Shown: positions 2,209 through 40,385 of the stretch, one piece after another
Layout: the number at the start of each line of letters is the position of its first letter
Numbering within the stretch: position 1 is the stretch's first letter
DNA from: a virus
Taxonomy: Duplodnaviria > Caudoviricetes
DNA: 51,589 nucleotides
Virus record (IMG/VR): IMGVR_UViG_3300033141_002903
Location: 1 to 51,589 of that record
Reading direction: 5' to 3' (one strand)
Translations under genes and position numbers: made by a program
The notes under the pieces: model-generated
The model's database searches: none
The model's input: the letters and a program-made list of their open reading frames with translations, nothing else
Told to the model about the DNA's origin: nothing

Positions 2209-2251
2209 ACTTATATAAAGTAGTCAAGAGACAATATCTCAGGAGAGAATC

Positions 2252-2731: not shown

Positions 2732-2732
2732 A

Positions 2733-3394: not shown

Positions 3395-3395
3395 G

Positions 3396-3968: not shown

Positions 3969-3969
3969 A

Positions 3970-4585: not shown

Positions 4586-4766
4586 AAGGATTGTAAAAGG
4601 GGACAATAATGAAGATGAACTTATTGAAACTTTTTATGTTTTAATGAAAACTTTTGGTTATACTCTGGATGAGCTTAAGAAAATACCTATACCAACCTTT
4701 AATTTATTGGTTAGAATGATAAATAAAGAAGAACAATTAAATAGGAAGGCTATAAGAAAGAGATAA
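4563..4766 (+). CDS. Second tail-assembly-chaperone-like ORF
   Basis: 'FGYTLDELKKIPIPTF' pattern directly before the tape measure. Confidence 0.6.
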   Translation: MNPLQELKRIVKGDNNEDELIETFYVLMKTFGYTLDELKKIPIPTFNLLVRMINKEEQLNRKAIRKR

Positions 4767-6265: not shown

Positions 6266-6266
6266 A

Positions 6267-6755: not shown

Positions 6756-6756
6756 A

Positions 6757-9700
6757 ATGACAAGAAAAATATATGCCGAGAGTGTTAAAAAATGGGCAAA
6801 AGGTTCTGGAATTGTAGGGGGGACTTTAATTGGAATAATATTTATATATCTTTATACCACGGGGGCAATTAGTAATGTAAGTTATTCTGGAGATGTTATT
6901 TGTGCAGGAACAATTGAAGACCCTTGTTATGCTTATATTAACTTCACTGCAAATGAGGATATTTTTATTTATCCAACAGATTATGACCCATGGGGGAGAA
7001 ATACAATTTTTAATTTTGACCCAGCAATTAAATCTTGGAAATTAGAAAGAAGTTGGGGAAATGGTTGGCGAGAAATTCCATTAAATAAATCTTGTACAGG
7101 AACATGGTGTGGATTAAGTAATTCACAAGACGAAAGAAAGTTTAGTGTAGCATTTAGGGAAGGTAGAAATTATTCTTTAAGGATTACTGCCTATAAAAAC
7201 AATCCAAATGACGACATTAAATGGGGTGCTTTTTCAGGAGTTGATAAGATAGACCCTATTTTTTATGGGATAGAAAAATATAAAATTTATAATTCAGAAT
7301 TGAAAGAAGTTACAATAAGGGACAAGAATGTTAAAGAACTTGTAAAAATAAAACTTCTTACTCCTTTAAATAACTATGTTGGAAGAGGTTATCAAAAAGT
7401 TGCTGAATATGAAGTTAATTCTAAAAAAGAATTAAAGATTCTCGTTTCTAATATTGAATTATATGATAAAAATGATGGGATGAACCCAATAATCAGGCCT
7501 ATTGATTTTAAAATAAAAGGAATTGAACAAGTTGAGGTTAATGATTATGCAAGGGTTTGTGAGGAAATTTGGAATGATACAATAAATAATAATACCTTAA
7601 CTTGCACACAAAAATTAATTGGAAGTCATTATGAAGAGAGAATTATTTGGACAGATTTAAATAAAGTTGATTTTAAGGAAAATGAGAGTATAATTGTTGG
7701 TTTATTTACAAATGTTAAAAAAGGTGATAAAATTGAGTGGATTCCAACATTCCAAATAGGAAGTAAAGGTTTTAAAATTGAAGAATGGGCGACTTGGACA
7801 GAGGATTTAAATGCTGGTCTAGTAGCCTATTATAAATTAGATGAAACAACAGGAGATGTAATAGATGCAACAGGAAAATACAACGGAATTAATTATGGAG
7901 CAACAAGAGGTGTAACTGGGAAAATAAATAATGCTTATAGTTTTGACGGCTCAAATGATTACACAAACCATAGCAATCCAGCAGGATTACAATTAACAGA
8001 TTATTTTACTTTCAACGCATGGGTATATTGGGGCGGGGCAGGAAGTGCAAATCAAGATGTTATATTTTCAAGGTGGGAAAATTCAAATGAAAAATCTTAT
8101 GTATTTAATCTTAATAAAGATACAGGGAATTTACAGGCATATTTATCAAGTGATGGAACCACCACATCTTTTCCAGGGAAATGTAATACATCGTTTCCAA
8201 CTAATCAGTGGGCTATGGCTACAATAACTTACAATAAAACAGCTGGAGAAGTTATATTTTATATGAATGGTCAAAAATATAACACAGAATTTTTCAGTTC
8301 AAGTTTATATGTCGGAAATAGCAACTTCTTCTTAGGAAGATTCTATAATTCAGAATTTTTTAAGGGAACAATAGATGAAATTGGTATTTGGAATAGAACA
8401 TTAAATGATAGCGAAATTGTAGATTTATATAATGGAGGAGCAGGAATTACATGGACAGTTAATTATGCTCCAAACTCCCCAATTTTAAATGCTCCTTTAG
8501 ATGATGCAACAGGAGTTTCATTAAATCCTATATTAAATGTAACAGTTTCAGATCCAGATGGGGATGTAATGAATGTAACTTTTATTAAAAATTTAGACAA
8601 TTCAGTAATTTGCACAAATAATTCAATCTCAAATAATACTGTTGTAACTTGCACTTGGAGTGGATTAAGTGAATTAACTGATTATCAATGGTATGTTAAT
8701 GTTACAGATGGTTCATTGACAACTCAAAGTGATTTTTGGAATTTTACAACAGGAGATTTTACTAATCCAAAGTGGGAGCAAAACAAGACAAATATAACTA
8801 CAAAAACAGATTATTTAGATTCAGTTTATTTTAATATAACCTTAAATGATAGTAGTGCAGACTATTATATTTTTAGGTGGTATAATGGAACCGCTTGGGT
8901 AAATGACTCAGCAGTTAGTTATACAGACGGAGAGGAAGTTTCAGTAATAAAAACAATTAATGTTCTTTCGGATTCTTTTCAAATAAACTGGACATTCTAT
9001 TTTAACGACACATTTGGAAATTCTAATCAGTCAGATGAATGGAGTGTATCAATTGATAATTATAATCCAAGAATAGAATTCATTTCTCCGACATTAAGTA
9101 ATAATTCTGTAAAAGATAGAAATTGGATTTATGTTAATGTTTCAGTCACAGAAGCAAATTTTAGAGACATAGTTTTTAATCTTTATTGGAGCAACCAAAC
9201 AATCCTTAATTCAACAAATTACACATCAGGAATTTATGAAATAAATTGGACAGGATTATCTTACGGAAAATATTATTATAATGTTACAGTTTATGATACT
9301 TATTCACATTCAAATTCAACAGAAACAAGAATTCTTTATTTGTCAGATTTGAATTTATCTCTTGAAGGATTATACTCAAACATCAGCGTCGAGCTTAACA
9401 CACCGATAGATATTGTTGCTAATTCTTCAGTGGACTTTGGAGATATTTTTATTGACATAGTTTATCCTGGATACGGAATAAATTATACAAATGGAAGTTG
9501 GGGGGTCAGTTTAATCGATTTCTTAGTTTCTTATTTTAGAAAAAATGTATTAGCTGATGGTTCTACTAGCAAATTATTTAGTTTTTCTGGACTTTATGTT
9601 AATGATACTGGTTTGAAGATAAGTTCACATCAATATGACGAGGTTGTTGGTTTAAAATTGAACATAAGCTCGAATGATTCAGTTATTGACCCTGTTTTTT

Positions 9701-13934: not shown

Positions 13935-14095
13935 AAGGATATTGTATCCACTGCAAGTCAAGGGTTAAAATTCTTGATTTAGAGTTTGTTAGAAGAAGCC
14001 CACGGAATGGGATACTCTGTTATAGGGGAAAATGCTCTGTGTGTGGTGGTGGTGTTGGAAAACTTTCAACACAAGAATTAAATTTGGAGGAATAA
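13928..14095 (+). CDS. Zinc-ribbon protein (DUF5679-like), missed by the ORF track
   Basis: MVEGYCIHCKSRV...NG..YRGKCSVCGG, two CxxC pairs, 55 aa. Confidence 0.65.
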   Translation: MVEGYCIHCKSRVKILDLEFVRRSPRNGILCYRGKCSVCGGGVGKLSTQELNLEE

Positions 14096-25760: not shown

Positions 25761-27788
25761 TCATTTCATCTTCTCCTTTGCTTCTTCAATGGTTAAACCA
25801 GCAATTTCTTTTAAATCGTGTTCTAGCATTTCTTTGATTATTTCTTTATAAGTGTATTTTGGCTCCCATCCAAGAGTATTTCTAATTTTAGTTGAGTCCC
25901 CTAGCAATGCTGGAACTTCTGCAGGTCTAAAATATTTCTCGCTTACTTCAACATATTTTTTCCAGTCAAGACCAATCATATCAAAAGCATCTTTTAAGAA
26001 TTCTCTAATAGAATGTGTTTCATTTGTGCTAACAACAAAATCATCTGGTTTATCGTGTGTAATAATCAGATACATCGCCTTAATGTAGTCTAAACTATGA
26101 CCCCAATCCCTTGTAGCATTCAAATTGCCCAAAATCAATTTATCTTGTTTTCCAGCAACTATCCTTGCTATACCTCTTGTTATTTTCCTTGTAACAAAAT
26201 TAACTGTTCTTCTTGGAGAATTATGGACATGAATATTTCCAATACCCGCAATAAACTCCCCACTTTCAGTTTCTAAATCATAAAACCACCCCTTATAATT
26301 GGACATGTCAATAGTTTTTGTTACCTCTGCAAAAGGTTTTGATAAATGAGATTTTATTCCTTTTGGGCTATTTAGGTTAATACAATATATAATTGAACCT
26401 GTTTTTCCTGTTGTTGTATAAAAAGTCTTTCTTTGGGTTGGTAATAAAATATCTGTTAAATACCACAATCCCTGTGCTAATGTTGCAGAATTAGTTTTAA
26501 AAGCCTTAAACTCATAAACACATTTATCTTTTTTTAAGCCATCACAATTATTGTAACCTCTTAAAAAGGACATTTGGGCTTCTTTATTAGCATTTAAAAT
26601 TCTCTTTGGAATTCTTTTATATCTTTCAGAAGTGTACAAATCTAATTCTTTTGTCCAATTATTTCCAGTAAAATATATTTGTTTAACAGTATTACCTTTC
26701 TTAAATCCACTTGATGTATCTTGCTCGTAAGTATGAGTTCCAACAATTTTATTCCACAATTCTAAAAATCTCTTTCTAATTTTTTCATCATTTTTTGTAA
26801 ATTTACCCATATTTCCTTTTTTATTTATATACCCATCAGCAACTAACATCCCTATTAATTCTGCTTCCTCATTAGAAACAAAATCAGAAACATTTTTAAT
26901 TATATTCAGATTAACTAATTCAAATCTATCTCCTTTAGAAATTTCTCTTGTTTTTTTTTCTTCTCCTTCCATAAATGCGACATGGTCACCAGTAGCCATA
27001 TATCCCCCGCATCTTCCAGAAATGAATTTTGGGTCTTTATTGTTCTCTAAATCATGTGGATAGCCTGAAGCATATTTAACCTTAACCCACCCTTTTTTAC
27101 CCAAAATTTCCAAATCTGATATTTCTTTGTGTTGATATTTTTTATTAGATTTATCTATAAATGTTAAAACATCTGTAAGAGGTTTAATATCAAATTTATT
27201 TCCTTCTTTTACAAAAATAGGCATAAAATCTGCCATTGTCTCATGATTAAAACAAATAGAATTACAAGCAAATATCCCATAAGCATTCCTGTAAAGTTTA
27301 ACCAGATGATACGCACCAAGTTTTGCTATTCCATAAGGGCTTACTGGTAGCATTTTAGTATCTTCTTTTTGTGGTGGGGGGCTAATTCCAAACATTTCAC
27401 TAGAACTACATTGTAAAAATCTTGTCTTAGGAGAGAAGTTTTTAATTGCTTCAAGTATTCTCAAAACACCAAGAAGATTATAATTTAAAGTAGATTCTGG
27501 AGTTTTAAAACTAATACTAACGTGGCTCATAGCAGAAGTGTTGATAAAATAATCTGGTTTATGTTTTTTTATTAATTCATTGATATTACAAGCATCAGAA
27601 AGGTCAAAATACTCCATTTTAAAGTTCTGGTTTTCATCTTCTAATGAGCAAAGCAATTCATATCTTTCAGAATTTGGACAAGCATTTCTCCTAATAAGAC
27701 CAATTACTTTTTCACCCCTATTTAGCAGAAATTCTATTAGATTACTTCCATCCATTCCTGTTGCACCAGAAATCATCCATAAACTCAT
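25761..27788 (-). CDS. gmd: GDP-mannose 4,6-dehydratase containing an intein
   Basis: 'GATGMDG', 'AMSHV', 'SSSEMFG', 'YGIAK', FNHE|SPRR split by an insert, 'RDWGH', 'RPAEV'. Confidence 0.93.
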   Translation of the reverse strand: MSLWMISGATGMDGSNLIEFLLNRGEKVIGLIRRNACPNSERYELLCSLEDENQNFKMEYFDLSDACNINELIKKHKPDYFINTSAMSHVSISFKTPESTLNYNLLGVLRILEAIKNFSPKTRFLQCSSSEMFGISPPPQKEDTKMLPVSPYGIAKLGAYHLVKLYRNAYGIFACNSICFNHETMADFMPIFVKEGNKFDIKPLTDVLTFIDKSNKKYQHKEISDLEILGKKGWVKVKYASGYPHDLENNKDPKFISGRCGGYMATGDHVAFMEGEEKKTREISKGDRFELVNLNIIKNVSDFVSNEEAELIGMLVADGYINKKGNMGKFTKNDEKIRKRFLELWNKIVGTHTYEQDTSSGFKKGNTVKQIYFTGNNWTKELDLYTSERYKRIPKRILNANKEAQMSFLRGYNNCDGLKKDKCVYEFKAFKTNSATLAQGLWYLTDILLPTQRKTFYTTTGKTGSIIYCINLNSPKGIKSHLSKPFAEVTKTIDMSNYKGWFYDLETESGEFIAGIGNIHVHNSPRRTVNFVTRKITRGIARIVAGKQDKLILGNLNATRDWGHSLDYIKAMYLIITHDKPDDFVVSTNETHSIREFLKDAFDMIGLDWKKYVEVSEKYFRPAEVPALLGDSTKIRNTLGWEPKYTYKEIIKEMLEHDLKEIAGLTIEEAKEKMK
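26220..27239 (-). mobile_element. LAGLIDADG intein (340 aa) in gmd, starting with Thr
   Basis: Insert TMADF...VHN between NHE and SPRR; block B 'ATGDH'; 'LIGMLVADG' and 'FLRGYNNCDG'; block F 'FYDLET'. Confidence 0.9.
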
Positions 27789-27839: not shown

Positions 27840-28424
27840 TTATTTTTCACAAGAGATATTCAAACTTATTAATTCTCCTTCTATTTTGGCATGAGAGTGG
27901 TCATCATATTTTCCCCATTCAACTTCAGAATGCTTCCATGGTTCTATTCTTTTAAACCCAATAAACCTAAGCAAATCCCCAAGTCTAGCATAATCATAAA
28001 CTGTTTTATGATAAATTATTTTTTTATTTGATTCCATTCTCCCATATAGTGGTCCAAGAAATTTATGTAATGGAACGCCCTTTAAATAAAGTTCAGAAAT
28101 TTTCTTAAAATCTGGAACAGAAAGATAAATTTTCCCACCTTCTTTCAATGCATATTTCCAAAATAGAAGCAATCGAATAACTTCTCTTTCATCAAAATAT
28201 TCCAAGAAATGACTAGCATATATTAAATCAACTGTATTAGTTTTAATATTAGTAAGATAAATATCGTCTGAATGAATGTGATTAAATTTGGCAATATCAA
28301 CATTATACCACCCCTTCCAATTTCTTTTTCCACAACCCATGTGTATTTTCATTTTTCTCATTCTCTTTGATATATTTATATCATCTAATCTAATTATCTT
28401 GTGTGTTTTTTTGATTTTTGTCAT
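27840..28424 (-). CDS. SAM-dependent methyltransferase
   Basis: 'KIHMGCG..GWYNVD', 'IYASHFLEY', 'LKEGG..LSVPD'; the true start may be downstream. Confidence 0.85.
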   Translation of the reverse strand: MTKIKKTHKIIRLDDINISKRMRKMKIHMGCGKRNWKGWYNVDIAKFNHIHSDDIYLTNIKTNTVDLIYASHFLEYFDEREVIRLLLFWKYALKEGGKIYLSVPDFKKISELYLKGVPLHKFLGPLYGRMESNKKIIYHKTVYDYARLGDLLRFIGFKRIEPWKHSEVEWGKYDDHSHAKIEGELISLNISCEK

Positions 28425-28433
28425 GTTAGTTTA

Positions 28434-28504
28434 TTGGTCTGCGTGGAATTGAACCACGACTAAAGGGTTATGAGCCCAGTGTGCTACCTTTACACTACAG
28501 ACCA
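28434..28504 (-). tRNA. tRNA-Met(CAT), initiator-like, no encoded CCA
   Basis: TGGTCTG/CAGACCA acceptor stem; GTGT/GCAC D stem; CTCATAA anticodon loop with GGG/CCC; CGTGG-TTCAATT-CCACG T arm. Confidence 0.85.
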
Positions 28505-28528
28505 TTTCTTGTTTCATTTTCTAAAAAT

Positions 28529-28644
28529 GTCAGCGTGAGTATCCTCTCCAAACAGGCATACGCTATTGTAATTTTCTTCCCCTGTGGAGATTCGTGTCTC
28601 CAGATAAACCCCCAATAGCAAAGATTTATCCTTTTTTCGCTGAC
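28529..28644 (-). ncRNA. Putative structured RNA immediately upstream of the tRNA
   Basis: Nested stems GUCAGCG/CGCUGAC, GCUAUUG/CAAUAGC, UGGAGA/UCUCCA, GUAU/AUAC. Confidence 0.4.
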
Positions 28645-28815
28645 TATTTGGTACATCTTGGTATATTGAGGTACATTGCTAATTTAATTCGTTTTCTCTA
28701 ACTTTTTTGTCCGAAATCATCTGAAGTGTGTAGTTTTTGAAAATGTTAAGCATATTCTATTAACTTCCAAAAAAGATTATCCTCCTTTATTTTACATTTC
28801 TCTGGATGTTCTTTT

Positions 28816-29097
28816 TCATCTAACTCTTTCTGAACATCCTTTCTTGAATATAACTTTTTTGGGTATCTTATTATTTTCATTTTCATTTTCTTTCCATACT
28901 TGTTCAAAAGAAACATCTTCTCCTTTTCCTTTTCTAAAAAATGTTTCAGCTACCCGCCACAAAACTGCATCTGAAGACATTATTGGTTGTTGTTTTGCAA
29001 GACTAATATCTTTAGAACATTTTCTACACAAACATCCTTTTGAACAACCCATAATTCCTCCTGTTATTTTTTGTTGGCATAATTTACAATTTGTCAT
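28816..29097 (-). CDS. Cys-rich (Zn-finger-like) hypothetical protein
   Basis: CKLC...CLCRKC; GGGAG before MTNC. Confidence 0.6.
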   Translation of the reverse strand: MTNCKLCQQKITGGIMGCSKGCLCRKCSKDISLAKQQPIMSSDAVLWRVAETFFRKGKGEDVSFEQVWKENENENNKIPKKVIFKKGCSERVR

Positions 29098-29260
29098 TAG
29101 TTTCTCCCAACTTTGGAGCAAAATCCAAAATTTCGTTTAATATTGGGATTAAGGAGAGTTTTTACAGAGTAAAAATTCGGGCAGTCGTTAGACTGCTCTT
29201 TAATCCATATTAAACTCTCCGTAGGAAAACCCGAAGGGTTTAGTTCCGTCCCAAATCGTT

Positions 29261-29524
29261 TCATATTAATCGCCTATTTACTTTAATTTTGTCCATAATC
29301 TTTAGATTTTTTCCAGTTTCATAAGGTATAACAAATGATTCATCAACACCAAAATTGGAAACAGTAATTCTTAAACTAATGGGGAGATGTTTTCCTCCCA
29401 CAAAAATTTGGGTTTGTTCAACATTTATCCCAGTTATTACATTTTCTGTTTCAAATTCCAGTTTCTCATTTGTTCTATTGAAAAATCTTTTCTCTTCTTT
29501 TTGGACACTGACTTTTTTGCTCAT
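29261..29524 (-). CDS. Hypothetical protein looped out of junction 1
   Basis: AGGAGG SD; enclosed by the 29242-29257/29562-29577 stem. Confidence 0.7.
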   Translation of the reverse strand: MSKKVSVQKEEKRFFNRTNEKLEFETENVITGINVEQTQIFVGGKHLPISLRITVSNFGVDESFVIPYETGKNLKIMDKIKVNRRLI

Positions 29525-29698
29525 TTTAAACCTCCTGAGTTTAGCTGAACCCCGCCCACAAGATTTGGGACGGAATTGAGTTTAATGTATGCGGATAAGT
29601 TCTCCGTAAGGAAAAAATCCGCAGGATTTTTAGTTTTATGAGCGAAGCGAATAAAATTGAATTTATCCGCTATTATGTTCCCTGCATTAGCAGGTTGA

Positions 29699-29848
29699 TT
29701 AATCGGCATCATCATCTTTACCTTCTATTTTTAACCAATTCTTAGCATTCTCTTTATCAAATATATCTTCAAACCCTTGATTATTCCTTATCTGATTTTT
29801 TAAATCTTGTATCTCAAATTCATTTTCTGGTTCTTTCCACATTTTCAT
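29699..29848 (-). CDS. 49-aa acidic protein looped out of junction 3, missed by the ORF track
   Basis: AAGGAGGT SD; MKMWKEPENEFEIQDLK...DDDAD*; the stop codon lies inside the stem. Confidence 0.65.
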   Translation of the reverse strand: MKMWKEPENEFEIQDLKNQIRNNQGFEDIFDKENAKNWLKIEGKDDDAD

Positions 29849-30021
29849 TACCTCCTTATAGCCGATTAATCAAAGTTTTCCGTCAGGAAAATTGAACATA
29901 ATATCTGCGATTATGGAAAGTTTGTCGTTAAACAAATTTGGGGAGTTCGTTAGAACTCCTCTATAATCGCTATTAATCGCCCCGTAGGGCGTTGCGTAGC
30001 AACGAGTAAAGGAGAGTGCGG

Positions 30022-30342
30022 TCATTCTTCCCCCCTACATTTTTTTAAATGGGCGTAAAGTTTTGGAGCAGTTTCACAATCTCTTTCTTCATCATATAGT
30101 TTCATTAAAGTATCCCATTCTTCTGCAATTCCTTTCCAAATAGGATATTTCTTTGATAAATCAATTATTAAATCTCTGACTTTATGTTTATGATATTCTA
30201 AACAATCAAATAATAAATGAATACATCTCTGAAAGTCAGATGGGTCTCTTGGAATTGCAGGTCTTTCTTTTTCAATACCTAAGATAAATGAAACTATTGT
30301 TAAACTGCTTTCTCCATAATCAGACCATTTAATTTTTTCCAT
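30022..30342 (-). CDS. Phage-type hypothetical protein looped out of junction 4
   Basis: 'GESSLTI...PRDPSDFQRC..LL...W' pattern; its SD (AAAGGAG) lies within the closing stem. Confidence 0.75.
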   Translation of the reverse strand: MEKIKWSDYGESSLTIVSFILGIEKERPAIPRDPSDFQRCIHLLFDCLEYHKHKVRDLIIDLSKKYPIWKGIAEEWDTLMKLYDEERDCETAPKLYAHLKKCRGEE

Positions 30343-30420
30343 TTTACAAGCACTCTCCTTTATTGCGATTAATACCCTTTAATCGAACTTTCCACATGAA
30401 GTCTTGGTTAAGTTTATTTA

Positions 30421-30573
30421 TCATTTTTTATTTAATTTAATTTTACTTAATCTAAGTTTCATTTTTATATAGCATCCAGCAGGACTATTATCATAATACA
30501 TTCCTCTTGTTTTATTGCATGTGTTTGAGTTTGCATCATAATTCTCACAAGTTTTCCAATATTTGCATTTCAT
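30421..30573 (-). CDS. Small Cys-rich protein
   Basis: MKCKYWKTC..., coupled by ATGA to the upstream gene. Confidence 0.55.
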   Translation of the reverse strand: MKCKYWKTCENYDANSNTCNKTRGMYYDNSPAGCYIKMKLRLSKIKLNKK

Positions 30574-30821
30574 TCTAACTCCTTAAATCCTGCTTTTTGT
30601 TTGATTATCTCTCTATCAACCATATAACTAACCTTAACATTTCTTTCATTAATTAAATCTAAAATATCTTGTGGTAAATCATTTAGTTTAATGCAAGATA
30701 AATCTGAATCTAAAATTTCTTTAAAGCATTGTTTAACGTCTTCTTCATAATATGCTGTATTATAATCTCGGCTGTTTGGGTCTAATTCAAATCCTTTTTC
30801 ACTCAATGTTTTTTCTTTCAT
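30570..30821 (-). CDS. Hypothetical protein, paralogue of 32906..33262
   Basis: Shares TLSEK, DVKQ..KEILD and IIKQKAGFKELE. Confidence 0.7.
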   Translation of the reverse strand: MKEKTLSEKGFELDPNSRDYNTAYYEEDVKQCFKEILDSDLSCIKLNDLPQDILDLINERNVKVSYMVDREIIKQKAGFKELE

Positions 30822-30979
30822 TCTATTTTCCATTTGACATTTCTTAATTTATCCAATACACCATCTTTATTTGTTAAAATATTATAAGTAATTTCAAATG
30901 CTTTTAGTACTTCTTTTACTTTTTCAAAGTCCCTCATATTATTAAATTCTTCTTCAGTTGCTAATTTTATTTTATTCAT
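30818..30979 (-). CDS. Small hypothetical protein
   Basis: MNKIKLATEEE..., coupled to its neighbours. Confidence 0.5.
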   Translation of the reverse strand: MNKIKLATEEEFNNMRDFEKVKEVLKAFEITYNILTNKDGVLDKLRNVKWKIE

Positions 30980-31223
30980 GTTTCAACTCCTCCACATTTT
31001 GTTTTATTTCCTCGGTTACATTCATTAAAATTAATCCATAACCAATATTTTCTATCTCACTACAAAATTTTGTTTCTGTGTCTATTATTTCCTCCCATAC
31101 ACTTCCAATATATCCTTGAAAAAATAAATTAAGTAAATGTTCTAACCAAAATGGATTTACAATTATTCCTACAGCGATGTTACTATCTGGAAATTCTTTA
31201 AATTTTGGTATTTCTATTTTCAT
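30972..31223 (-). CDS. Hypothetical protein
   Basis: Coupled ORF. Confidence 0.6.
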   Translation of the reverse strand: MKIEIPKFKEFPDSNIAVGIIVNPFWLEHLLNLFFQGYIGSVWEEIIDTETKFCSEIENIGYGLILMNVTEEIKQNVEELKHE

Positions 31224-31717
31224 TCTAACTCTATGAAATTGTTATGTCCGCAGACACGACATTTAAAATATTTTACCTTTCTATTTGAGTTTTCCAATAT
31301 CTTTCTAATGGAATGCTGGAGCATTGATACTCCTCTTGGTGTGTCTCCACGTAAATATATAAGGGTGGGGCTAAGGAAATCCCTTTCCAGCATACCCAAG
31401 TTATACGCCATGTATAAGTATTTACTTTTACATTGTTTATCAAGGTTACTTAAATAAAAACCAAAACGAGAATAATTCAATCCATAAAATCCAAGTGTTA
31501 ACATGTTTAAGATTTTAAATTTCTTAGAATTCTTAATTTCCTTATATCTTTTGTATAAATTATCTAAAACCTCTCCACACAATTTATCTTTTTTCTTTGT
31601 TTCTTCCAATAACTTCTCATACTTCGCTATTAGTTCTTTGTTTTTCCTAATATTCTTTAATCTTGCATCATTTATTGCATTACAATTTTTACATATTATT
31701 TTCATCTTAATCATCAA
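31220..31717 (-). CDS. Split zinc-ribbon protein
   Basis: CKNC at the N-terminus and CRVC at the C-terminus. Confidence 0.6.
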   Translation of the reverse strand: MMIKMKIICKNCNAINDARLKNIRKNKELIAKYEKLLEETKKKDKLCGEVLDNLYKRYKEIKNSKKFKILNMLTLGFYGLNYSRFGFYLSNLDKQCKSKYLYMAYNLGMLERDFLSPTLIYLRGDTPRGVSMLQHSIRKILENSNRKVKYFKCRVCGHNNFIELE

Positions 31718-31895
31718 GCATCTTAAGTGATTTAGGTATTTTAATGTTAAGTCTTATCCTTTTCGCATTATCCCATCTTATTCTTTCAAAACACCTTCCA
31801 CATACAGGATATGTTCTAATGTATCCAACAGCTTTTCTATCACACATGGAACATTTTACTTTTTTTTTAAATAGTATTGGTTTATTTTTTTCCAT
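31707..31895 (-). CDS. Small Zn-finger protein
   Basis: CSMC...CGRC; likely start MEKNK. Confidence 0.55.
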   Translation of the reverse strand: MEKNKPILFKKKVKCSMCDRKAVGYIRTYPVCGRCFERIRWDNAKRIRLNIKIPKSLKMLDD

Positions 31896-32151
31896 ATTTG
31901 CTCCTGCATTCATAACATTTAACATAAAATTTAATTTGTTTGAATTTCCTCTTTCCATCAGGATAAATAATTGTTGGATTAACTTTCTTACCGCAATCAA
32001 TACATAAACCCCTCTTTTTCCTAAATTCTACCACTTCTTTTCTTTTACGTTTATAATAACAAGATGTGCATAAACCACTTTTATTTGTTGGAGAAAGATT
32101 TCTTATTTTGCATTCAGAGCAAACTTTCCTTTTACTTGTAGTCCTTGCCAT
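31882..32151 (-). CDS. Zn-finger protein, first gene of the leftward arm
   Basis: Four CxxC pairs. Confidence 0.65.
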   Translation of the reverse strand: MARTTSKRKVCSECKIRNLSPTNKSGLCTSCYYKRKRKEVVEFRKKRGLCIDCGKKVNPTIIYPDGKRKFKQIKFYVKCYECRSKYGKK

Positions 32152-33482: not shown

Positions 33483-33962
33483 ATGGAGAGATTGAAAATA
33501 AAGAGAACAACAAAATATGGTGTTGAATTGGTTGAGCCAAAGGAAGATGGAGGTCCTAATTATAGGAATACCACAGAAGCTGTTAGGAATTTTCTATCAA
33601 AACAATGTCCTTGTGAGGTAGAAGTTCAGGAAATGGAAGGAAATGAAATTAGCAGGGTTAAGGTTATAAATAAAGGGAATCAAGGACCCTTTAAACAAAC
33701 AGAAGTAATTCCTGCTGATAAATGTAGTGATGAAAACTCTTATTGGAATTGGAGAACAGATTTTGAATTGCAAAAGCAGAAAAAGATTGAACAACAATTC
33801 TATGAGAGAGAAGCCCTTAAAACAATTGAAATCGCCTTAAAGATGATTGAGTTAAATAATTCAATTCCAGAAAGGGAAAAGATTATTCCAACAGCATCAT
33901 CAATTTTGGATACAACCAAAGTATTGCAAGGAATTATTGAAGAAATAAAGAAAAAGGAGTAA
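33483..33962 (+). CDS. Hypothetical protein (beta-rich N-terminal domain; possibly ssDNA-binding)
   Basis: Strong AAGGAGGT SD; the function is speculative. Confidence 0.55.
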   Translation: MERLKIKRTTKYGVELVEPKEDGGPNYRNTTEAVRNFLSKQCPCEVEVQEMEGNEISRVKVINKGNQGPFKQTEVIPADKCSDENSYWNWRTDFELQKQKKIEQQFYEREALKTIEIALKMIELNNSIPEREKIIPTASSILDTTKVLQGIIEEIKKKE

Positions 33963-34901
33963 TATAATGGAGCGAGAACATCTTGAAATACTCCAAACAG
34001 CAATTTTCTTACTTGAGGGTGTATCTGATGCTGATTTAATGCTTAGATACAATCTTTTACATAGAAAGAAGAAAGCAGAAAAGATAGTGGATATTTTAAA
34101 AAGTTAATTTTTTTTGCATTTTTTTAGAATATTTTTTGCATTTTTTTTAGGATTTTTTTGAATTATGTCTTTGTTTCTTCTCTTGCTGTCATACTTTTTC
34201 ATATAAGGTATATTCAATTTATAATAATGCAATCTTTTTTAAGTTCTTCTTCGTTCATTCTAACACCCCATTTATTTTTAACTCATCAAATATATTTTTT
34301 AAATCACCCTCATCTAAAAAAATACTTGCTTTAAGTAAATTATTTACCTGATAATTAAGAGTAACCCCTCTTTCTTCTATTTCTATCCATAAGTCACGAT
34401 CACCTTTTATTTTAATAAAAATTATTTTGGATATGTTCATTTTAACAAATTTTACCCTCCTGTTTAGTTAAATAAATATTTATACAATCCTTTACACCCC
34501 CCCAACCAACCACATAAATATAATATAGTAAATATAATAAACCAAATAAAAAAGGGCTTTTTTTAAGAGAAAACCCTGAAACTCTTTTAATTTTAGAAAA
34601 GCCACTACTGACTATTAATGAATTTTCTTTTCTTGATTCTTTGTTTGTTTTTCTTATTGATTCGTTTATTTCTTTTTTTATTTCTTTTTTTAGTTCTTCA
34701 CATAACAACACCATTTTTAATCACCCTACCAGAATAAAAGACAGGGTATTTAAATAATTTTCTATTAACTTATTAATAGTTACAATCTTATAATTTTGAA
34801 GAAAAATCTGAAATTGAAGATTGGTTAAATGAAAATGTGGATAAATGGTATGAATAAGTTTAGTTACTAAACTTAAAAATTAAATTAGGAGGAAAAACAA
34901 G

Positions 34902-35198
34902 ATGTTAGCAAATGTTACACATATAGCAGATTTTAGTAGTGCTGTTGAGTTTTTTGAAGAACAACCTTATTTAACTTTAAATGGGCTTTGTGAATTGTTT
35001 AATTTAGAGTTAGATGATATAAAAGGTTATGCAGAAACTAATGAAGTAAGTAATGAAATGGCTATCTTTGAACTTCTTAATGAAAAAGGCATAAGTGATG
35101 AAGAAATGATTGAAGAAGTTTTGAAGAATGAGAAAGAAAGTTATTTTGTTACTTATAACGACACAACAGACGATTTTAGCGTTTATCGTATAGATTAA
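34902..35198 (+). CDS. Acidic hypothetical protein
   Basis: AGGAGG SD; very D/E-rich. Confidence 0.7.
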   Translation: MLANVTHIADFSSAVEFFEEQPYLTLNGLCELFNLELDDIKGYAETNEVSNEMAIFELLNEKGISDEEMIEEVLKNEKESYFVTYNDTTDDFSVYRID

Positions 35199-35421
35199 AG
35201 AATAGTTACTATTCTTAATAATTAAATAGGAGAAAATTGAAAATGAAAAAAGTAGATTTGGATTTAGAGTTTGAAAGGTGGAAACAAGACAACGAAGAAC
35301 ACCTTAGAGAGAAGTTTTTGGAAATCCATAACTTTCAAGAATATCTGGAAGAAGCGTGGAGAGAATACCAGAACGAAAATGGATTAATTGATAAATCCAA
35401 TATTTAAGGTTACTTATTAAG

Positions 35422-35455
35422 GGGTAGTTATAAAATTATAATAATGTAACTACCC
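35422..35455. promoter_or_regulatory. Palindromic operator-like site
   Basis: GGGTAGTTA-N16-TAACTACCC in AT-rich intergenic DNA. Confidence 0.5.
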
Positions 35456-35643
35456 AATAGTTTAAAGATAAATATATAAATACTAAATGTTTTAAAAAAT
35501 TAAGATGGAACTTAAAAAAAGAGAAGAAAAGGAAATAAGGAAAAAGTGGGAAAAATTATCAGATGGTGAAAAATGCAGGTTTAATGGATATAAGGATTTT
35601 GTATCTGTTGAACTATTAAGGAGGAAATTGGATACAGAATAAA

Positions 35644-35913
35644 ATGGGATTTTCAACAATAGGAATAAAACCAGAAACAAAGAAAAAACTTAATGAATTT
35701 AAGGACTATTTAAAGGGAGAAATCAAGATAAGAAGTGATGATGATTTAATAAATTATCTGATTAAAAGTAACCTAAAATATCTTGAAATGGATTATAATA
35801 AGAAGAAAATTAAGTGGGAGAGAGAATATTTGGAATTGTGCAGGAAAAATAAACCCAAAATGTCATTTGAAGAATTTAAACAGAAAAAAATAACAGCAGA
35901 ATTAAAATGTTAA
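35644..35913 (+). CDS. RHH/antitoxin-like DNA-binding protein
   Basis: 'STIGIKPETKKKL...SDDDLINYLI' resembles archaeal RHH proteins. Confidence 0.55.
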   Translation: MGFSTIGIKPETKKKLNEFKDYLKGEIKIRSDDDLINYLIKSNLKYLEMDYNKKKIKWEREYLELCRKNKPKMSFEEFKQKKITAELKC

Positions 35914-36104
35914 TTGATGAGTTGAATTTAAAAGACGAATTAAAGGAGTTTATTCGTAAAGAATTTGGTGAGGTTGAAAGTCTTAAAATTATCAAGAATA
36001 CAAAGGGATTTAATTGGGAATTTAAATTGGTTGGGAAAGTTGAAGAGCAAATAAAGAGAATAATCAAAATAAACGAGGAGTTAGAAACTATCTTGAGATG
36101 TTGA
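35907..36104 (+). CDS. Hypothetical protein
   Basis: Coupled ORF. Confidence 0.55.
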   Translation: MLIDELNLKDELKEFIRKEFGEVESLKIIKNTKGFNWEFKLVGKVEEQIKRIIKINEELETILRC

Positions 36105-36227
36105 AATGAACAAAGAAATTAAGGTAAGTTTTGAACAGATTAAAAGGAAATGCAAGACGATTAAAGATTTAAGGGATTTATACTCTAATATAGAGAAAAT
36201 GAGACAGGTGAAAGGAGGGGTTAAAAA

Positions 36228-36659
36228 ATGAGTGCTTTTTTAATGAGTTTTCAAAGTTTAAGCAATCTTACAAATTGGTTTTATTTTGAAAATGACACAC
36301 ACGGAACTTTTAAAGGTTGTAAAAGAGAAATTTTTAAATTATTTCCAGAATTTGAGAAAGCAAAGTTTAAAGATAATTGGAATAAAGTTTTAGCAGAAGA
36401 ACTTTATAAATTAAATTGTTATTCTTTAAACCAAAGATACGGAGATGATTTAAAGAGTTTTCCAGAATTTGAACATAAAGAACCCGAAAAAATAGATATT
36501 TTTCAGTGTTTAAAATCTGTTCAGTGTTGGCTTTATCAAAGTTGCGAGGGAGACGCAGACACAAAACCACTTTATAAGATGATGCGAAGAATTGAGAAGG
36601 TTCTTTTAAATGCGATAGTAAATAGTTTAGAAGAATATAAAATCGCAAAGTGGGAATAA
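36228..36659 (+). CDS. Phage-type hypothetical protein
   Basis: AAGGAGG SD; 'LN..SLNQRYGD...LKSVQCWLYQSCEG'. Confidence 0.7.
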   Translation: MSAFLMSFQSLSNLTNWFYFENDTHGTFKGCKREIFKLFPEFEKAKFKDNWNKVLAEELYKLNCYSLNQRYGDDLKSFPEFEHKEPEKIDIFQCLKSVQCWLYQSCEGDADTKPLYKMMRRIEKVLLNAIVNSLEEYKIAKWE

Positions 36660-37238
36660 TATTTTTTTATTTTTTTTAAAAAGTGAGGGGTTACCCCAAG
36701 AGCAAGGAATTAAATATAAGATAAGTAAAATGAAAGAAGAAATAGTTTGTATAGATGATGTGCAAGATGGAAGTGTCTTAAAGTGGTTCGGAGTTGATTT
36801 AACTTTTAAAGGCAAAAAACAGGCACATTTGAGTATTTGCACAAGTTACCACACAAATCCAGATTTTTTGGAAATATCTGAAATCAATTTTTTAGAAGAT
36901 AGAGATTAAGAAATAAATACTAAGTGTTTATGTGTTTATGGTTTATTTTTAAAAACTCTTCCTATGGGCAAATTATTCGGTATTAGATTTTAGATAAGGT
37001 TCATTTTGTCACTTGTTTTGATTTTTGATATGGGGATAGTGTTGACAATTTAATAAATATTTAATTTGACAGTTTAATAAATGTATCAATTTAAAAATCA
37101 ATCACGGCTTTTTCTTAAGGATATTTCTAAGTTAAAAAAAATTCTGAAAAAAATTTTTGATAGATTAAAAATACAAGTGTTTGTTATTACTAAATAATTT
37201 ATAGAAAAATATTTAAAGGTTAAAATGTTGGGAAATTT

Positions 37239-37466
37239 ATGAGTTTGGGTCCTTGGAAAAAGTATAAGGAGAAAGTAATAAGAGGTGTTGATGGAAAAAG
37301 AGGATATATTTTTCATAAGAGGGTTGCTAAGGATTCTAATGGTGGTGGTTTAATTTGTGTTCCTAGAAGGTTTGTTGGTAAGAAAGTAACCTTAGTTATC
37401 ATGGATTATGGAGAAGAAGTTGATTTGTTAAATAGAGATATTGAAGAGGTGGATTTGTTCAAATGA
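37239..37466 (+). CDS. DUF2080/AbrB-like small protein
   Basis: 'KRVAKDSNGGGLICVPRRFVGKKVTLVI'. Confidence 0.6.
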   Translation: MSLGPWKKYKEKVIRGVDGKRGYIFHKRVAKDSNGGGLICVPRRFVGKKVTLVIMDYGEEVDLLNRDIEEVDLFK

Positions 37467-37559
37467 GTTATTGTAAATATCATTGTTGTTATTATAATGA
37501 ATGTTCGAATTATGAGATGAAAAGATGTAAAATTTATCGTAGGTTGGAGAAGTTATTGC

Positions 37560-37862
37560 ATGATTCAAATGGAAAAAACAAAGTGCGTTTGGAGAAACAT
37601 CCTTGATGCAAATAAGAACAGGTATAAAAAAGCTATGGAGTATTGTAGTGGTTGTGATGGCTATAATTTAGATTGCCCTGCACATCAAGATTATATCCAA
37701 AAAAATGAAAATTCAAGAAAGTTAGTACTTTTACTTAGAGATGGAATAACTGTTGAAATAAATAAGTGGTATAGGGATTCTGTTAAAGAAATACTTCCTG
37801 TAACAGAGGTGCAAAAATTGAAGAGAAAAGTAAATAGGCTATTAGAGTGGATTGTAAAATGA
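37560..37862 (+). CDS. Cys-containing hypothetical protein
   Basis: CSGCDG...C. Confidence 0.55.
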   Translation: MIQMEKTKCVWRNILDANKNRYKKAMEYCSGCDGYNLDCPAHQDYIQKNENSRKLVLLLRDGITVEINKWYRDSVKEILPVTEVQKLKRKVNRLLEWIVK

Positions 37863-38353
37863 AATTGAGGAAAACATATTGGGTTAAGCAAGAGAATAGA
37901 AGAAAAGGATATTGGTATGTTCAGTGTCCGAATACTGATTTACCAAGAGGAAATACAACTAAGTTAATTAGTCAGTGTAAAAAATGTCCAGATTATTTTG
38001 GAATGATTGTTGATGAAGATGTTGGAAGATATGTTAAATGTGATTATAGTGTTCCAAAAAAGATGCTTGAAAGCAGAGTAATCACTATGGAAGATAAGCC
38101 CTTTTATATAAATCATAAGCTAATGCATTCTTTGGTTTATTTTAATATTCATCCTAAAGATTTTGAAACAAAAGGTTTGTCTGGTGTAAAAAAAGAGGTA
38201 AAATCAATTTATCGTTCATTGCTAAAGACATTTCATCCAGATACTACTAAACTACCATTAGGAAGGGCAAAAAACGAATTAAGGCGGTTGAGAAGCCACT
38301 ATAATCGTATAAATAAATTGAGAATTAGTCCAAATGAGGATTTTATACAATGA
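37847..38353 (+). CDS. Protein with a C-terminal J-domain-like region
   Basis: 'VKSIYRSLLKTFHPD' HPD motif; Cys-rich N-terminus. Confidence 0.6.
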   Translation: MDCKMKLRKTYWVKQENRRKGYWYVQCPNTDLPRGNTTKLISQCKKCPDYFGMIVDEDVGRYVKCDYSVPKKMLESRVITMEDKPFYINHKLMHSLVYFNIHPKDFETKGLSGVKKEVKSIYRSLLKTFHPDTTKLPLGRAKNELRRLRSHYNRINKLRISPNEDFIQ

Positions 38354-38775
38354 AGTTATATTTAGCACACCCATATGAGCATTTGCATGAAATAAGGGAG
38401 TGGGAATTAGATTTTGAGAAAAGAAGTGGAATAGAGTTAATTAATCCTTTCTTTGATGTAGAAGATAGAGCAGTTCCAGAAATTGATATGCCTACAGATG
38501 ATAGAAGGAAACTAACATCAAAGTTTTATAAAAAAATAGTCACTGTAGATTTGAGGGAAATACTCATGTCTGATGGTGTTGTAGCAAGATTAAAAGGTCA
38601 TAAAATGTGCGGGACATATATGGAAATGGTTAATGCTACTATGATGAAGAAACCTGTTTATTCTATGATTGAAAATGACATGGATAGACACCCTTGGATA
38701 AAATATTATTCAACTGAAATATTTACAAAATTAAAGGAACTTGAAGATTTTCTTATTAATGTTAAAAATGGTTGA
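38350..38775 (+). CDS. Nucleoside 2-deoxyribosyltransferase/dNMP N-glycosidase-like protein
   Basis: 'KLYLAHPY', 'INPF', 'DL..I..SDGVVA', 'GTYME', 'KPVY'. Confidence 0.75.
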   Translation: MKLYLAHPYEHLHEIREWELDFEKRSGIELINPFFDVEDRAVPEIDMPTDDRRKLTSKFYKKIVTVDLREILMSDGVVARLKGHKMCGTYMEMVNATMMKKPVYSMIENDMDRHPWIKYYSTEIFTKLKELEDFLINVKNG

Positions 38776-39235
38776 TTACAAAAAACAAGGAAAAAGAAAT
38801 CGTGCTGCTGGAGCAAGATTTGAAAAGAAGGTAAGAGAAGATTTAGAAAAAAAAGGTTGGATAGTTAGTAGATGGTGTAATAATGTTGAGTGTATAAAAT
38901 ATAATAAAGAAAGCTGTAAAGACCCAGAAGATTGGGGAGAACTAAAATTAATTCCAGCAAAACACCAGTATAGAGGACCAGGTATTCCAATGTCTATAGG
39001 AACAGGATTTCCAGATTTTGTTTGTTTTAGACAACATAGAGAACCATATTATTTAGATAATAACTATGGATATTTATATGGGGTTATAGGAGTAGAATGT
39101 AAAACAAATGGTTACCTATCTAAAGAAGAAAAAGAAAAATGTAAATGGTTATTAGAAAATAACGTATTTAGTAAAATACTCATTGCTAAAAAAGGAAAAA
39201 AGAGAGGAGAGATAGTTTATACTGAGTTCAAATGA
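38768..39235 (+). CDS. hjc: Hjc-like Holliday junction resolvase (PD-(D/E)xK)
   Basis: 'GARFEKKVREDLEKKGWIVSR', 'GFPDF', 'GVECK'. Confidence 0.7.
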   Translation: MVDYKKQGKRNRAAGARFEKKVREDLEKKGWIVSRWCNNVECIKYNKESCKDPEDWGELKLIPAKHQYRGPGIPMSIGTGFPDFVCFRQHREPYYLDNNYGYLYGVIGVECKTNGYLSKEEKEKCKWLLENNVFSKILIAKKGKKRGEIVYTEFK

Positions 39236-39459
39236 CAAAAAGATTAGAAGAAAAAACAAAAAAATATTTGAAGGAAAATTATGTAGATGTATGTGTAGGA
39301 CCAATGACATTAGAAGAGATTGAATATGAAATAAGACATTACATAACTCAATATAAAGGATTAAAACAATTGGTTATAGATATAAATCAAAAAGAAAATA
39401 TATATCAAACTGCAATTTATATGAGAAAATCGGATTTTAAAAGAAAATGGGACAAATAA
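39232..39459 (+). CDS. Hypothetical protein
   Basis: Coupled ORF. Confidence 0.55.
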   Translation: MTKRLEEKTKKYLKENYVDVCVGPMTLEEIEYEIRHYITQYKGLKQLVIDINQKENIYQTAIYMRKSDFKRKWDK

Positions 39460-39833
39460 GAAGATTTAAAACTGGAGCAACAAGAGATACAGACGAGAAC
39501 AAGAATGACTACGAAGGTTTCCTTAGTCCTTTAGTTATTCAAAGATTTGGTGATTATATGACTAAACATAGAAAACAATCTGATGGAAGTATTAGAGATT
39601 CTGATAATTGGCAGAAGGGAATTCCTAAGGAAGAATATATTAAATCAGCATGGAGGCATTTTCTTGATTGGTGGTTAGAACATAGAGGACATAAATCAAG
39701 AGAAGGGATAGAAGATGCACTTTGTGCTTTGATTTTTAATGTTCAGGGATATTTACATGAAATATTAAAAGAAAATGAAAAATGGAGGATTAATTATGCC
39801 ATACATAGAACAAGAAAAAAGAAGAATGTATGA
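39447..39833 (+). CDS. dATP/dGTP diphosphohydrolase-like protein (DUF5664-like)
   Basis: 'FKTGATRD', 'DNWQKGIP', 'SAWRH', 'ALIFN'. Confidence 0.75.
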   Translation: MGQIRRFKTGATRDTDENKNDYEGFLSPLVIQRFGDYMTKHRKQSDGSIRDSDNWQKGIPKEEYIKSAWRHFLDWWLEHRGHKSREGIEDALCALIFNVQGYLHEILKENEKWRINYAIHRTRKKKNV

Positions 39834-40062
39834 ACCAGAATTGTCTAGTTTGAAAGATAAATTAGACGTAGAAAGCAAAGGAGATTTAACATATTTGGTT
39901 TTTTGTCTTGGATTAGAATATTTCAATAGGAAAGGGGTTTCATACACTTCTATCTCGAATGCTATAAGTTGTTTGACTGATGCTGCAGAAGAAATTAGAA
40001 GAAAGCATTTAATTCCTTATGAGAATCTAAAGATAAAGGAGAATGGAGATATATACAGATGA
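39796..40062 (+). CDS. DUF6899-like hypothetical protein
   Basis: 'MPYI...GDLTY...PYE..KI.ENGD'; GGAGG SD. Confidence 0.65.
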   Translation: MPYIEQEKRRMYEPELSSLKDKLDVESKGDLTYLVFCLGLEYFNRKGVSYTSISNAISCLTDAAEEIRRKHLIPYENLKIKENGDIYR

Positions 40063-40385
40063 AAAAAAGACAAGAAACTCTTAGTTTGAAAGACGCAATA
40101 GAAACCTTAGTTACTTATGACATTAAACACTGTCTATTCCCACATAATTATATTGCAGAAGTAATGGAAGAAATTCCAATAGTTCGTGGATTGGCAATGG
40201 ATGACAGGAAATTAATTTTACTTGATTCTGAACAAGGTATGGAGGAAATGAGGGAAACAATAATCCATGAATTAATTCATACTAAATATTACAGATTAGG
40301 AAATTTGAGGAGTAGGAATGTAGAGAGAAAGGTCATAGACGAAACGATTAGAACGTATAAAAAGCTCTATGGAGTAAAACCATAA
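40059..40385 (+). CDS. HExxH zinc metallopeptidase (ImmA/IrrE-like)
   Basis: 'RETIIHELIH'. Confidence 0.7.
   Translation: MKKRQETLSLKDAIETLVTYDIKHCLFPHNYIAEVMEEIPIVRGLAMDDRKLILLDSEQGMEEMRETIIHELIHTKYYRLGNLRSRNVERKVIDETIRTYKKLYGVKP

Follow-up and report, generated by a model that had tools for sequence, protein, structure and literature searches.

The virus record IMGVR_UViG_3300033141_002903 of IMG/VR (Duplodnaviria; Caudoviricetes) contains, at positions 29146-30374, an array of discrete structured modules. One DNA strand is predicted to fold here into six back-to-back three- and four-way junctions (3WJs and 4WJs), three of which hold a whole gene inside one arm. The window analysed is the entire record, which is complete (51,589 bp), has direct terminal repeats and a base composition of about 30% G+C. 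The modules are units of exchange between phages, and the genes they carry have a ribosome-binding site only, with no promoter-like site of their own. It is possible, at somewhat less than an even chance, that these junction-bounded cassettes move or recombine as single-stranded DNA (ssDNA).

Six junction modules in the window

The array was analysed by minimum-free-energy folding and with a junction scanner, which admits perfectly stacked helices only (Watson-Crick and G.T pairs) and looks for an outer stem with two to three branches, no more than two unpaired bases between these and a single long-range arm at most. All six modules appear in the minimum-free-energy DNA fold of the plus strand of 29146-30374, and the scanner recovers the same six on that strand at the coordinates of a preliminary description of the region, every listed element of which is present. 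The four 4WJs have zero unpaired bases at the branch point, as claimed in that description, and reach scanner scores of 84, 69, 84 and 83, while the top score in the rest of the 51.6-kb window is 59 and the maxima in four dinucleotide-shuffled windows are 61, 67, 65 and 62. The two 3WJs, with two unpaired G, score 51 each and are not above background by scanner score alone; their support comes from folding and covariation. The features of the region are the following.

29133..29142, plus strand: solitary decamer TCGTTTAATA, outer-right-like, preceded by AAATT and immediately left of the array
29146..29206, plus strand: 3WJ-a, with an outer stem of 10 bp, hairpin 1 of 10 bp, unpaired GG, and hairpin 2 of 6 bp with a GTTA loop
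29207..29588, plus strand: 4WJ-1, with outer stem 29207-17/29578-88, hairpins 29218-26 (TCC-GTA-GGA) and 29227-41, and cargo arm 29242-57/29562-77 (AGTT../..AATT)
29261..29524, minus strand: cargo gene 1, 87 aa, ribosome-binding site AGGAGG, no family match
29591..29670, plus strand: 4WJ-2, a cargo-free cloverleaf
29671..29903, plus strand: 4WJ-3, with outer stem 29671-80/29894-903 (TATTATGTTC/GAACATAATA), hairpin 29681-94, cargo arm 29695-707/29861-73 and hairpin 29874-93
29699..29848, minus strand: cargo gene 2, an open reading frame (ORF) of 49 aa with an AAGGAGG site, its last codons running into the arm
29907..29970, plus strand: 3WJ-b, with an outer stem of 11 bp, hairpin 1 AAGTT..AATTT, unpaired GG, and hairpin 2 with a GTTA loop
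29971..30374, plus strand: 4WJ-4, with outer stem 29971-80/30365-74, hairpins 29981-89 and 29990-30004, and cargo arm 30005-19/30350-64
30022..30342, minus strand: cargo gene 3, 106 aa, phrog_1229 (unknown function), all-helical predicted model without PDB match
30375..30394, plus strand: array-end motif TTAA-n-CGAACTTT, often followed by CCA, at the promoter-proximal end of the array and resembling the first half of a 3WJ

The three cargo ORFs (87, 49 and 106 aa; minus strand) are flanked by perfect inverted repeats of 14, 13 and 13 nt in the arms, which fit them closely and leave space for the ribosome-binding site only; in 4WJ-4 the arm itself includes this site (AAGGAGAG). The third hairpin of 4WJ-2 (29632-58) bears the AGTT../..AATT signature of a cargo arm closed by a GAA loop and is therefore read as an empty acceptor arm, and the hairpin at 29874-93 of 4WJ-3 is an empty AGTT..AATT arm with a GTCA loop. 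Hairpin 1 of 3WJ-a has the signature GAGTT..AATTC, including one G.T pair, and 3WJ-b joins 4WJ-4 directly with no spacer. The solitary decamer resembles the right half of a module, and a search for its partner found none. A single large inverted repeat around the whole array was tested and rejected.

The array folds far better than dinucleotide-shuffled sequence with both DNA and RNA parameters, the control that the preliminary description had called for. The cargo-free modules (n = 3) have z-scores of -4.7 to -7.4 on the plus strand and -4.0 to -5.9 on the minus strand, and in each of the 12 folds (DNA and RNA parameters, both strands) all 200 shuffles folded less well. The plus strand is the more stable one in every cargo-free module, as in 3WJ-a folded as RNA (-26.3 vs -17.6 kcal/mol). 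For the whole region the z-scores are -11.0 (RNA, plus strand), -9.1 (RNA, minus strand) and -10.4 (DNA, plus strand), with 25 shuffles each. Folds, scanner and shuffles together therefore indicate that the observation is real and far beyond chance. Small hairpins containing G and C cluster within the window in the array region alone. Counts of exact inverted repeats (110 observed vs about 103 expected) were rejected as a discriminator, being useless in such an AT-rich genome. The top junction-like match outside the array (13948-14049, plus strand; score 59, three hairpins) is situated where plus- and minus-strand gene blocks converge and lies within the range of the shuffled controls.

Shared grammar and the folding strand

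The same module grammar occurs in eight other public records (L021, L024, L025, L026, L099, L194, L238 and G001:C8, hereafter C8) and on a contig of a sediment run, X1. L194 is a 3.5-kb contig from a metagenome-assembled genome (MAG) bin of Candidatus Paceibacterota (bacterial), and C8 a 40-kb contig (40,111 bp) from a MAG bin of Candidatus Woesearchaeota (archaeal); with bins in both domains, the relatives do not favour the archaeal virus hinted at in the preliminary description over a bacterial one. Five of the holders, L099 and L238 (both IMG/VR), L194, C8 and the X1 contig, were contributed by DNA-pattern scans. Scanning viral contigs with the 3WJ pattern flagged four junction-like elements in fetched loci among the 115 stretches listed, L099 being the only family member, and the cassette pattern gave one true match of six in viral contigs (L238) and two of 38 in genome contigs; the array-end motif scan found module context in none of the 115 stretches listed. 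No relatives were retrieved by viral-contig scans with single proteins (the 106-aa and 87-aa cargo) or by the genome-contig protein scan, and blastn of 28400-31000 against the phage collection gave no match. A scan of both strands of 74 loci (377 kb) found perfect cargo junctions (score at least 83, zero unpaired bases) only in L021 (3), L024 (3) and L025 (1), all on the antisense strand, and the modules of L026 likewise lie on the strand antisense to the genes. The single exception, L055:2959-3089, was rejected as an unrelated GC-rich nested palindrome despite its high score; these 130 nt consist of repeated CTGTCGCAA units and fold equally on both strands (z about -14). Apart from the arrays, the contigs that carry them have hardly any proteins in common, whether among themselves or with the window.

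A cassette, read along the folding strand, consists of outer-left, hairpin A, hairpin B, cargo arm and outer-right. The outer-left stem is (A)TATTA plus five variable bases and outer-right ends in TAATA(T); the two pair over 10-11 bp and close the perfect 4WJ. Hairpin A is commonly TCC-GTA-GGA, and hairpin B has 5-8 bp with a GNA or GNNA loop. The cargo arm (15-16 bp) starts with AGT(T/A) and ends with A(A/T)TT, directly followed by outer-right, and it therefore has a conserved G.T wobble at its second pair. In the 3WJ, an outer stem of 8-11 bp closes hairpin 1 (AAGTT..AATTT) and hairpin 2, with unpaired GG between the two. The 3WJ adjoins outer-left with a spacer of 0-1 nt, on the side downstream of the gene, so that transcription passes through the cassette first and the 3WJ second. 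Cargo modules called by the scanner number 18 and come from seven records (the window, L021, L024, L025, L099, L194 and C8; L238 is outside that count, and L026 was scanned with none above the cut-off); the regular expression for the arm signature and the TATTA test of the outer stem each hold for 16 of the 18 (17 by eye). The cargo comprises one to five genes and has a length of 153 to 1,345 nt. As AGTT..AATT arms also occur without cargo in the window (third hairpin of 4WJ-2, last hairpin of 4WJ-3), and L024 houses a homologue of the 106-aa protein in the hairpin-1 arm of a 3WJ-type module, this hairpin type is read as the residence of genes. The 106-aa protein has metagenomic homologues, the closest of which, on metagenome contigs, are flanked by inverted repeats, and distant homologues (29-49% identity) at 19 viral loci have no such flanks, which places the stems with the cassette scaffold and not with the gene family. 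In the window, L021, L024, L026 and C8 the array-end motif comes after the promoter-proximal cassette, and L025 has a variant of it; the regular expression for the motif also matched four unrelated loci by chance. Within the modules, a consensus scan for sigma-70-type -35/-10 pairs and a search for intrinsic terminators gave nothing convincing, and the consensus scan found no promoter-like plus-strand site near the array.

Pairing in the 3WJs is maintained through sequence change. A 3WJ covariance model (R1), built from seven seeds, matches 3WJ-a with 58.5 bits and 3WJ-b with 72.3 bits, and found 3WJ copies in the window (2), L021 (3), L024 (at least 7), L025, L099 (3) and, weakly, L026. In a 13-row alignment fitted to the model (12 folding-strand rows and one reverse-strand row), 96.9% of cells are paired and 19 of the 23 pairs have changed on both sides. 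The covariation score of 0.664 (0.240 shuffled) was reached by none of 500 shuffles, and controls with the partners slid by one to three columns gave 0.08-0.16. These compensatory changes bear out the earlier impression that the stems differ while pairing is kept. An ORF of 51-56 aa that spans 3WJ-b and the 4WJ-4 hairpins (29870-30025, minus strand; L021 1254-1424, plus strand) is 72% identical between the two records because the underlying structured DNA is conserved, and is probably not a gene.

Four observations bear on which strand folds. When G.T and A.C wobbles are admitted equally, 36 G.T are counted vs 4 A.C in 21 clean modules, and 78 vs 30 over all 27 rows; the six rows set aside have at least eight wobble pairs each and low scores, and are probably spurious. 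The wobbles are constant in position: 16-17 of 18 cargo arms have G.T as their second pair, and 12 of 13 rows have G.U as the third pair of hairpin 1 in the 3WJ. Model matches on the reverse strand reach 18-26 bits vs 58-70 for the same elements on the folding strand, and the minus-strand junctions have four unpaired bases. Finally, 33 of 51 distinct small hairpins have G..A loops (GTA 12, GTTA 9, GAA 8), closed by a C.G pair (5'-C.G-3') in 31 of these 33 and in 42 of the 51 overall. All four favour, as the folding strand, the plus strand of the window, which is the template strand of the cargo genes and antisense to them; the mRNA strand is the least likely one to fold.

Stable RNA loops are usually of the GNRA or UNCG types, to which the GTA and GAA triloops and GTTA do not belong. 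The C-GNA-G and C-GNNA-G loops correspond to the mini-hairpin DNA motif GCGNAGC/GCGNNAGC, according to PMC13037366. Taken from sequence features, the folded molecule is probably ssDNA, with RNA clearly the less probable of the two, and the term "ssDNA-type" used for the junctions in the preliminary description is thus favoured by loop type and strand asymmetry.

An RNA role has points in its favour, as with RNA parameters both strands fold far better than shuffles, the G.U wobbles are compatible with a plus-strand RNA, and the ribosome-binding site inside the 4WJ-4 arm would suit a masking function. Stems in a minus-strand polycistronic mRNA could pair the 5' with the 3' flank of every cistron and act in RNase III-type processing, in stability or in hiding ribosome-binding sites, or a plus-strand antisense RNA could fold; gene-flanking stems of this kind recall rRNA processing stems and the RNase III sites of T7. 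On the mRNA strand, however, the conserved wobbles turn into A.C mismatches (36 vs 4), the perfect stacking of the junctions is lost and 4WJ-2 refolds differently, and there are other modules whose ribosome-binding site falls outside the arm. Against an RNA also speak the loops (GTA, GAA and GTTA rather than GNRA or UNCG), the lack of a plus-strand promoter-like site near the array and the lack of an Rfam match. Such RNA-level elements are accordingly given a low probability.

The same mini-hairpins, found on the template strand of the cargo genes, raise a second alternative, namely that they and the junctions are single-strand initiation signals, serving as hairpin promoters (as for the N4 virion RNA polymerase and plasmid Frpo) or as priming sites (as in ssiA and the G4 origin) in early expression or complementary-strand synthesis within the cassette region. 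C-GNA-G mini-hairpins have been described in the G4 origin, in ssiA/RepB' and in the N4 promoter (PMC13037366, PMC4496689), the last of which forms on the template strand (PMC4496689), and plasmid methyltransferase and anti-defence genes have been placed behind ssDNA promoters on the transferred strand (PMC11541004); most of the tested cargo likewise consists of methyltransferases. The conserved outer-left start TATTA(A/T) would moreover fall, on the non-template partner, about 7 nt before the junction and the G.T mismatch. Every hairpin of a unit, however, is downstream of its own cargo gene, the promoter-proximal first cassette has no upstream hairpin, and the modules have no -35/-10 pair in the consensus scan. 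An N4-like giant polymerase is also missing, the largest window ORF (1750 aa) having Laminin_G_3 as its only match, and gene-enclosing arms and module exchange are left unexplained. This alternative is unlikely, if less so than an RNA role.

Within the array no Rfam family reaches its gathering threshold; in the window only tRNA-Met (28434-28504) passes, and the best matches in 29000-30500 have 16-19 bits vs thresholds of 40-90. A search of the published literature gave nothing resembling this architecture. The gene-carrying junction cassettes thus look undescribed, and the family looks rare among the matches listed. Given the arrays of the relatives, the compensatory changes and the missing Rfam match, the earlier proposal of a selected modular structure with no known counterpart, in which gene-cassette logic came first among the options, is supported. 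Candidate functions of the structure are a recombination site, a priming or promoter scaffold and a decoy.

Units of exchange and their cargo

The relatives have homologous arrays that differ in their cargo genes and in the number and order of their modules, which is the support that the preliminary description had said to look for. The outer stem TATTATGTTC/GAACATAATA, which in the window encloses the 49-aa gene, surrounds a C-5 methylase in L021 and in L025 an N6_N4 methylase, with differing hairpins and arms, and on the left side of these cassettes the common sequence is the 10-nt stem only. Another outer stem, TATTAAACTC/GAGTTTAATA, surrounds at least five different cargoes, and the 4WJ-4 scaffold of the window recurs in L021. 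In C8, where units occur singly, positions 658-7252 and 33517-40111 are 99.97% identical over 6,595 nt, and the adjoining cassettes differ (91-aa vs 87-aa cargo, with distinct hairpins and arms). These near-identical repeats with differing cassettes are taken as one genome of about 33 kb with two cassette alleles in the population. Judged by the outer-stem sequences and by where the identical block starts, the two mismatches of C8 are read as lying in outer-right and as being compensated in outer-left. Contigs of X1 break at the border between hairpin A and hairpin B, and in one of them 3WJ-b, outer-left and hairpin A are followed by another hairpin B and another arm. By eye, L024 has two extra units between the same neighbours as in L099, the two-unit block being bounded by ATATT..AATAT beside TA. 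Where L024 and L099 share one scaffold, both gene ends are common (84-96% identity) and the methylase middle has diverged.

The 6,595-bp terminal repeat of C8 (99.97% identity; loci L233-L235) comes with a DUF559/Vsr-like endonuclease and an intein fragment. C8 also has a Resolvase+HTH_7 ORF (position in the contig not located), and none was seen among the window ORFs tested.

Among ten cargo proteins tested from the relatives, six match N6_N4_Mtase, two C-5 DNA_methylase and two nothing, and the eight with a methyltransferase match are orphan DNA methyltransferases. The three cargo proteins of the window belong to no Pfam family. The predicted model of the 106-aa protein is a helical bundle (pLDDT 90), for which a fold search against the PDB gave no match at E <= 0.001. 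Immediately upstream of the array in L021 lies a 154-aa ORF (337-801, plus strand) made up mostly of WNI(K/E)A-type pentapeptide-like repeats.

The exchange of units also brings in the possibility that duplex DNA alone is involved, the fold having no role, and that the cassettes are inverted-repeat elements resembling miniature inverted-repeat transposable elements (MITEs) or mobile insertion cassettes, moved in trans by an ordinary transposase, or linkers that guide homologous or microhomology recombination. The conserved termini of the outer stem (TATTA..TAATA), the L024 block missing from L099 and bounded by ATATT..AATAT beside TA, and the single units of C8 are all consistent with this. 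The promoter early stem-loop (PeSL) cassettes (PMC2839356, PMC4122927) are a precedent for modular shuffling in phages. Transposition by terminal repeats does not, however, need nested pairing, perfect junctions or compensatory changes in internal hairpins, and duplex recognition does not predict strand-specific features such as the constant G.T wobble and C-G(N)NA-G loops on one side only; nor was a transposase found among the 55 window ORFs tested with Pfam. A duplex-only origin is the least probable of the three alternatives, and the probability left after these and the favoured ssDNA reading falls to other functions.

A candidate ssDNA cassette system and known counterparts

If the cassettes move as ssDNA, the template strand of the cargo genes would fold as single-stranded DNA, with the outer stems of 3WJ and 4WJ stacked end to end and the two ends of the unit brought together at a conserved TATTA/TAATA duplex end. 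A trans-supplied enzyme (a structure-specific recombinase, resolvase or transposase) might cut and rejoin at this duplex end, or a polymerase stalled at the junction might switch template. By either route whole cassettes would be excised, inserted or swapped exactly at helix borders, and the arrays would act like an integron with no integrase gene of its own, gathering anti-restriction methyltransferases and small accessory genes in the early region of the phage. The fuller proposal, more tentative still than movement as ssDNA, is a new class of mobile cassette in phages of ultra-small bacteria or archaea. A single strand would fold in advance into the recombination substrate, a four-way DNA junction that carries the gene in an arm and has a 3WJ as its neighbour. 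Integron-like anti-restriction arrays of such cassettes, with no integrase on board, might be moved by a structure-specific enzyme.

The window encodes a large terminase, a portal, a tape-measure-like protein, tail proteins and a capsid protein, and therefore represents a tailed double-stranded DNA (dsDNA) phage. The array lies within a minus-strand gene block (14.6-32.2 kb), which also carries a sugar-modification cluster, an AAA ATPase, a sigma-like helix-turn-helix protein and numerous small ORFs rich in Cys. The 55 window ORFs tested with Pfam (seven structural-region ORFs of at least 130 aa and many small ORFs being outside the test) include no integrase, transposase, HUH/Rep protein, reverse transcriptase, resolvase or DNA polymerase. 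Bordering the array are CxxC-rich small proteins (28816-29121, 30421-30573 and 31220-32151, minus strand) with weak zinc-finger-like matches, and tRNA-Met (CAT; 28434-28504, minus strand), the only RNA gene called in the window, is about 640 nt away. In the sugar-modification cluster (20.5-27.8 kb; aminotransferase, glycosyltransferases, sulfotransferase), a GDP-mannose 4,6-dehydratase (25761-27788, minus strand) is split by an insert of about 340 aa, whose LAGLIDADG_3 match suggests an intein.

Several points weigh against movement as ssDNA. No recombinase-type enzyme was identified among the tested window ORFs, and tailed dsDNA phages are not known to have an obligatory ssDNA stage, which leaves the moment of strand folding unexplained. 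In X1, the only DNA run with the region (contigs only, 0.05 share of words), no excised circle, empty site or joint was found, and no RNA run is listed with the region. Target duplications and exact crossover points are unreadable because all ends are AT-rich palindromes (TA, TATTA), and the breakpoints at module borders could also come from selection that removes recombinants with broken pairing. Some of the variation reflects ordinary homologous mosaicism within methylase genes and does not fall at module borders. Lastly, sequence cannot settle between DNA and RNA as the folded molecule.

If ssDNA recombination sites are indeed at hand, they would be a second and independent answer to the problem solved by integrons, that of capturing and shuffling promoterless genes. 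Such sites would sit in viruses, use branched DNA and not a bulged hairpin, and point to a junction-specific enzyme; they would also account for the sets of orphan methyltransferases that phages build up against restriction. Accessory and anti-defence genes of uncultured phages could be sought by means of the module grammar. Should the function prove to be priming or promotion, perfect 4WJs that carry genes, covary strongly and are strand-specific still constitute a new structured-DNA motif.

Among known systems, the IS200/IS605 elements and their derivatives that lack a transposase rely on strand-specific recognition of ssDNA hairpins, and their left and right ends are not paired with each other, while mobile insertion cassettes consist of passenger genes flanked by inverted repeats and are moved in trans. 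Neither has an internal junction architecture such as that of the phage modules. The two ends of a phage unit pair together, and neither an HUH domain, as in the Y1 transposase TnpA, nor another transposase is present in the 55 window ORFs tested. Inverted termini as in MITEs and mobile insertion cassettes are present, no transposase was identified, and the TA-rich palindromic ends hide any duplication.

The signals of N4, G4, ssiA and Frpo share with the modules hairpins of the C-GNA-G type on a template or single strand (PMC13037366, PMC4496689, PMC11541004), and Frpo is associated with methyltransferase and anti-defence genes (PMC11541004), as the modules are with methyltransferase cargo. 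Those signals, however, are single hairpins or one long hairpin upstream of the start, and none encloses genes, forms a perfect 4WJ or borders exchangeable cassettes. The phage elements do lie on the template strand of adjacent methyltransferase or anti-defence genes, as Frpo and ssi elements do, but their hairpins are downstream of their own cargo, and there is no long hairpin rebuilding -35/-10 upstream of a gene. Of the N4 promoter system (stem of 5-7 bp, 3-nt loop, and a virion polymerase of about 3500 aa that reads it), the phage has the hairpin type and lacks the polymerase.

PeSL cassettes of T4-type phages also place short conserved motifs around variable accessory genes in plastic regions and have been proposed for modular shuffling (PMC2839356, PMC4122927). 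PeSLs are reported to be direct repeats with an early promoter and a terminator stem-loop, whereas the flanks here are inverted, nested, branched and strand-specific, with no promoter match. Direct repeats with a sigma-70-type early promoter and stem-loop are not a feature of the modules.

Integron attC arrays come closest. They too have co-oriented promoterless genes, each followed by a structured site whose fold is kept while its sequence varies, and the strand that folds is complementary to the mRNA (the bottom strand); the phage array has this same succession of co-oriented promoterless ORFs and bottom-strand structured sites. Clusters of integron cassettes with no integrase exist. Pfam found no integrase in the 55 window ORFs tested, which leaves the array with no IntI/attI/Pc platform, and the RYYYAAC/GTTRRRY core boxes of attC are absent, the arms reading AGT(T/A)..A(A/T)TT instead. 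An attC site is a single bulged hairpin and the phage sites are three- and four-way junctions; the integron gene stands beside its site, whereas the phage cargo gene is placed inside an arm of the structure. The array fails the defining tests of an integron (IntI, core boxes and fold), yet in this comparison it appears to work most like an integron cassette array.

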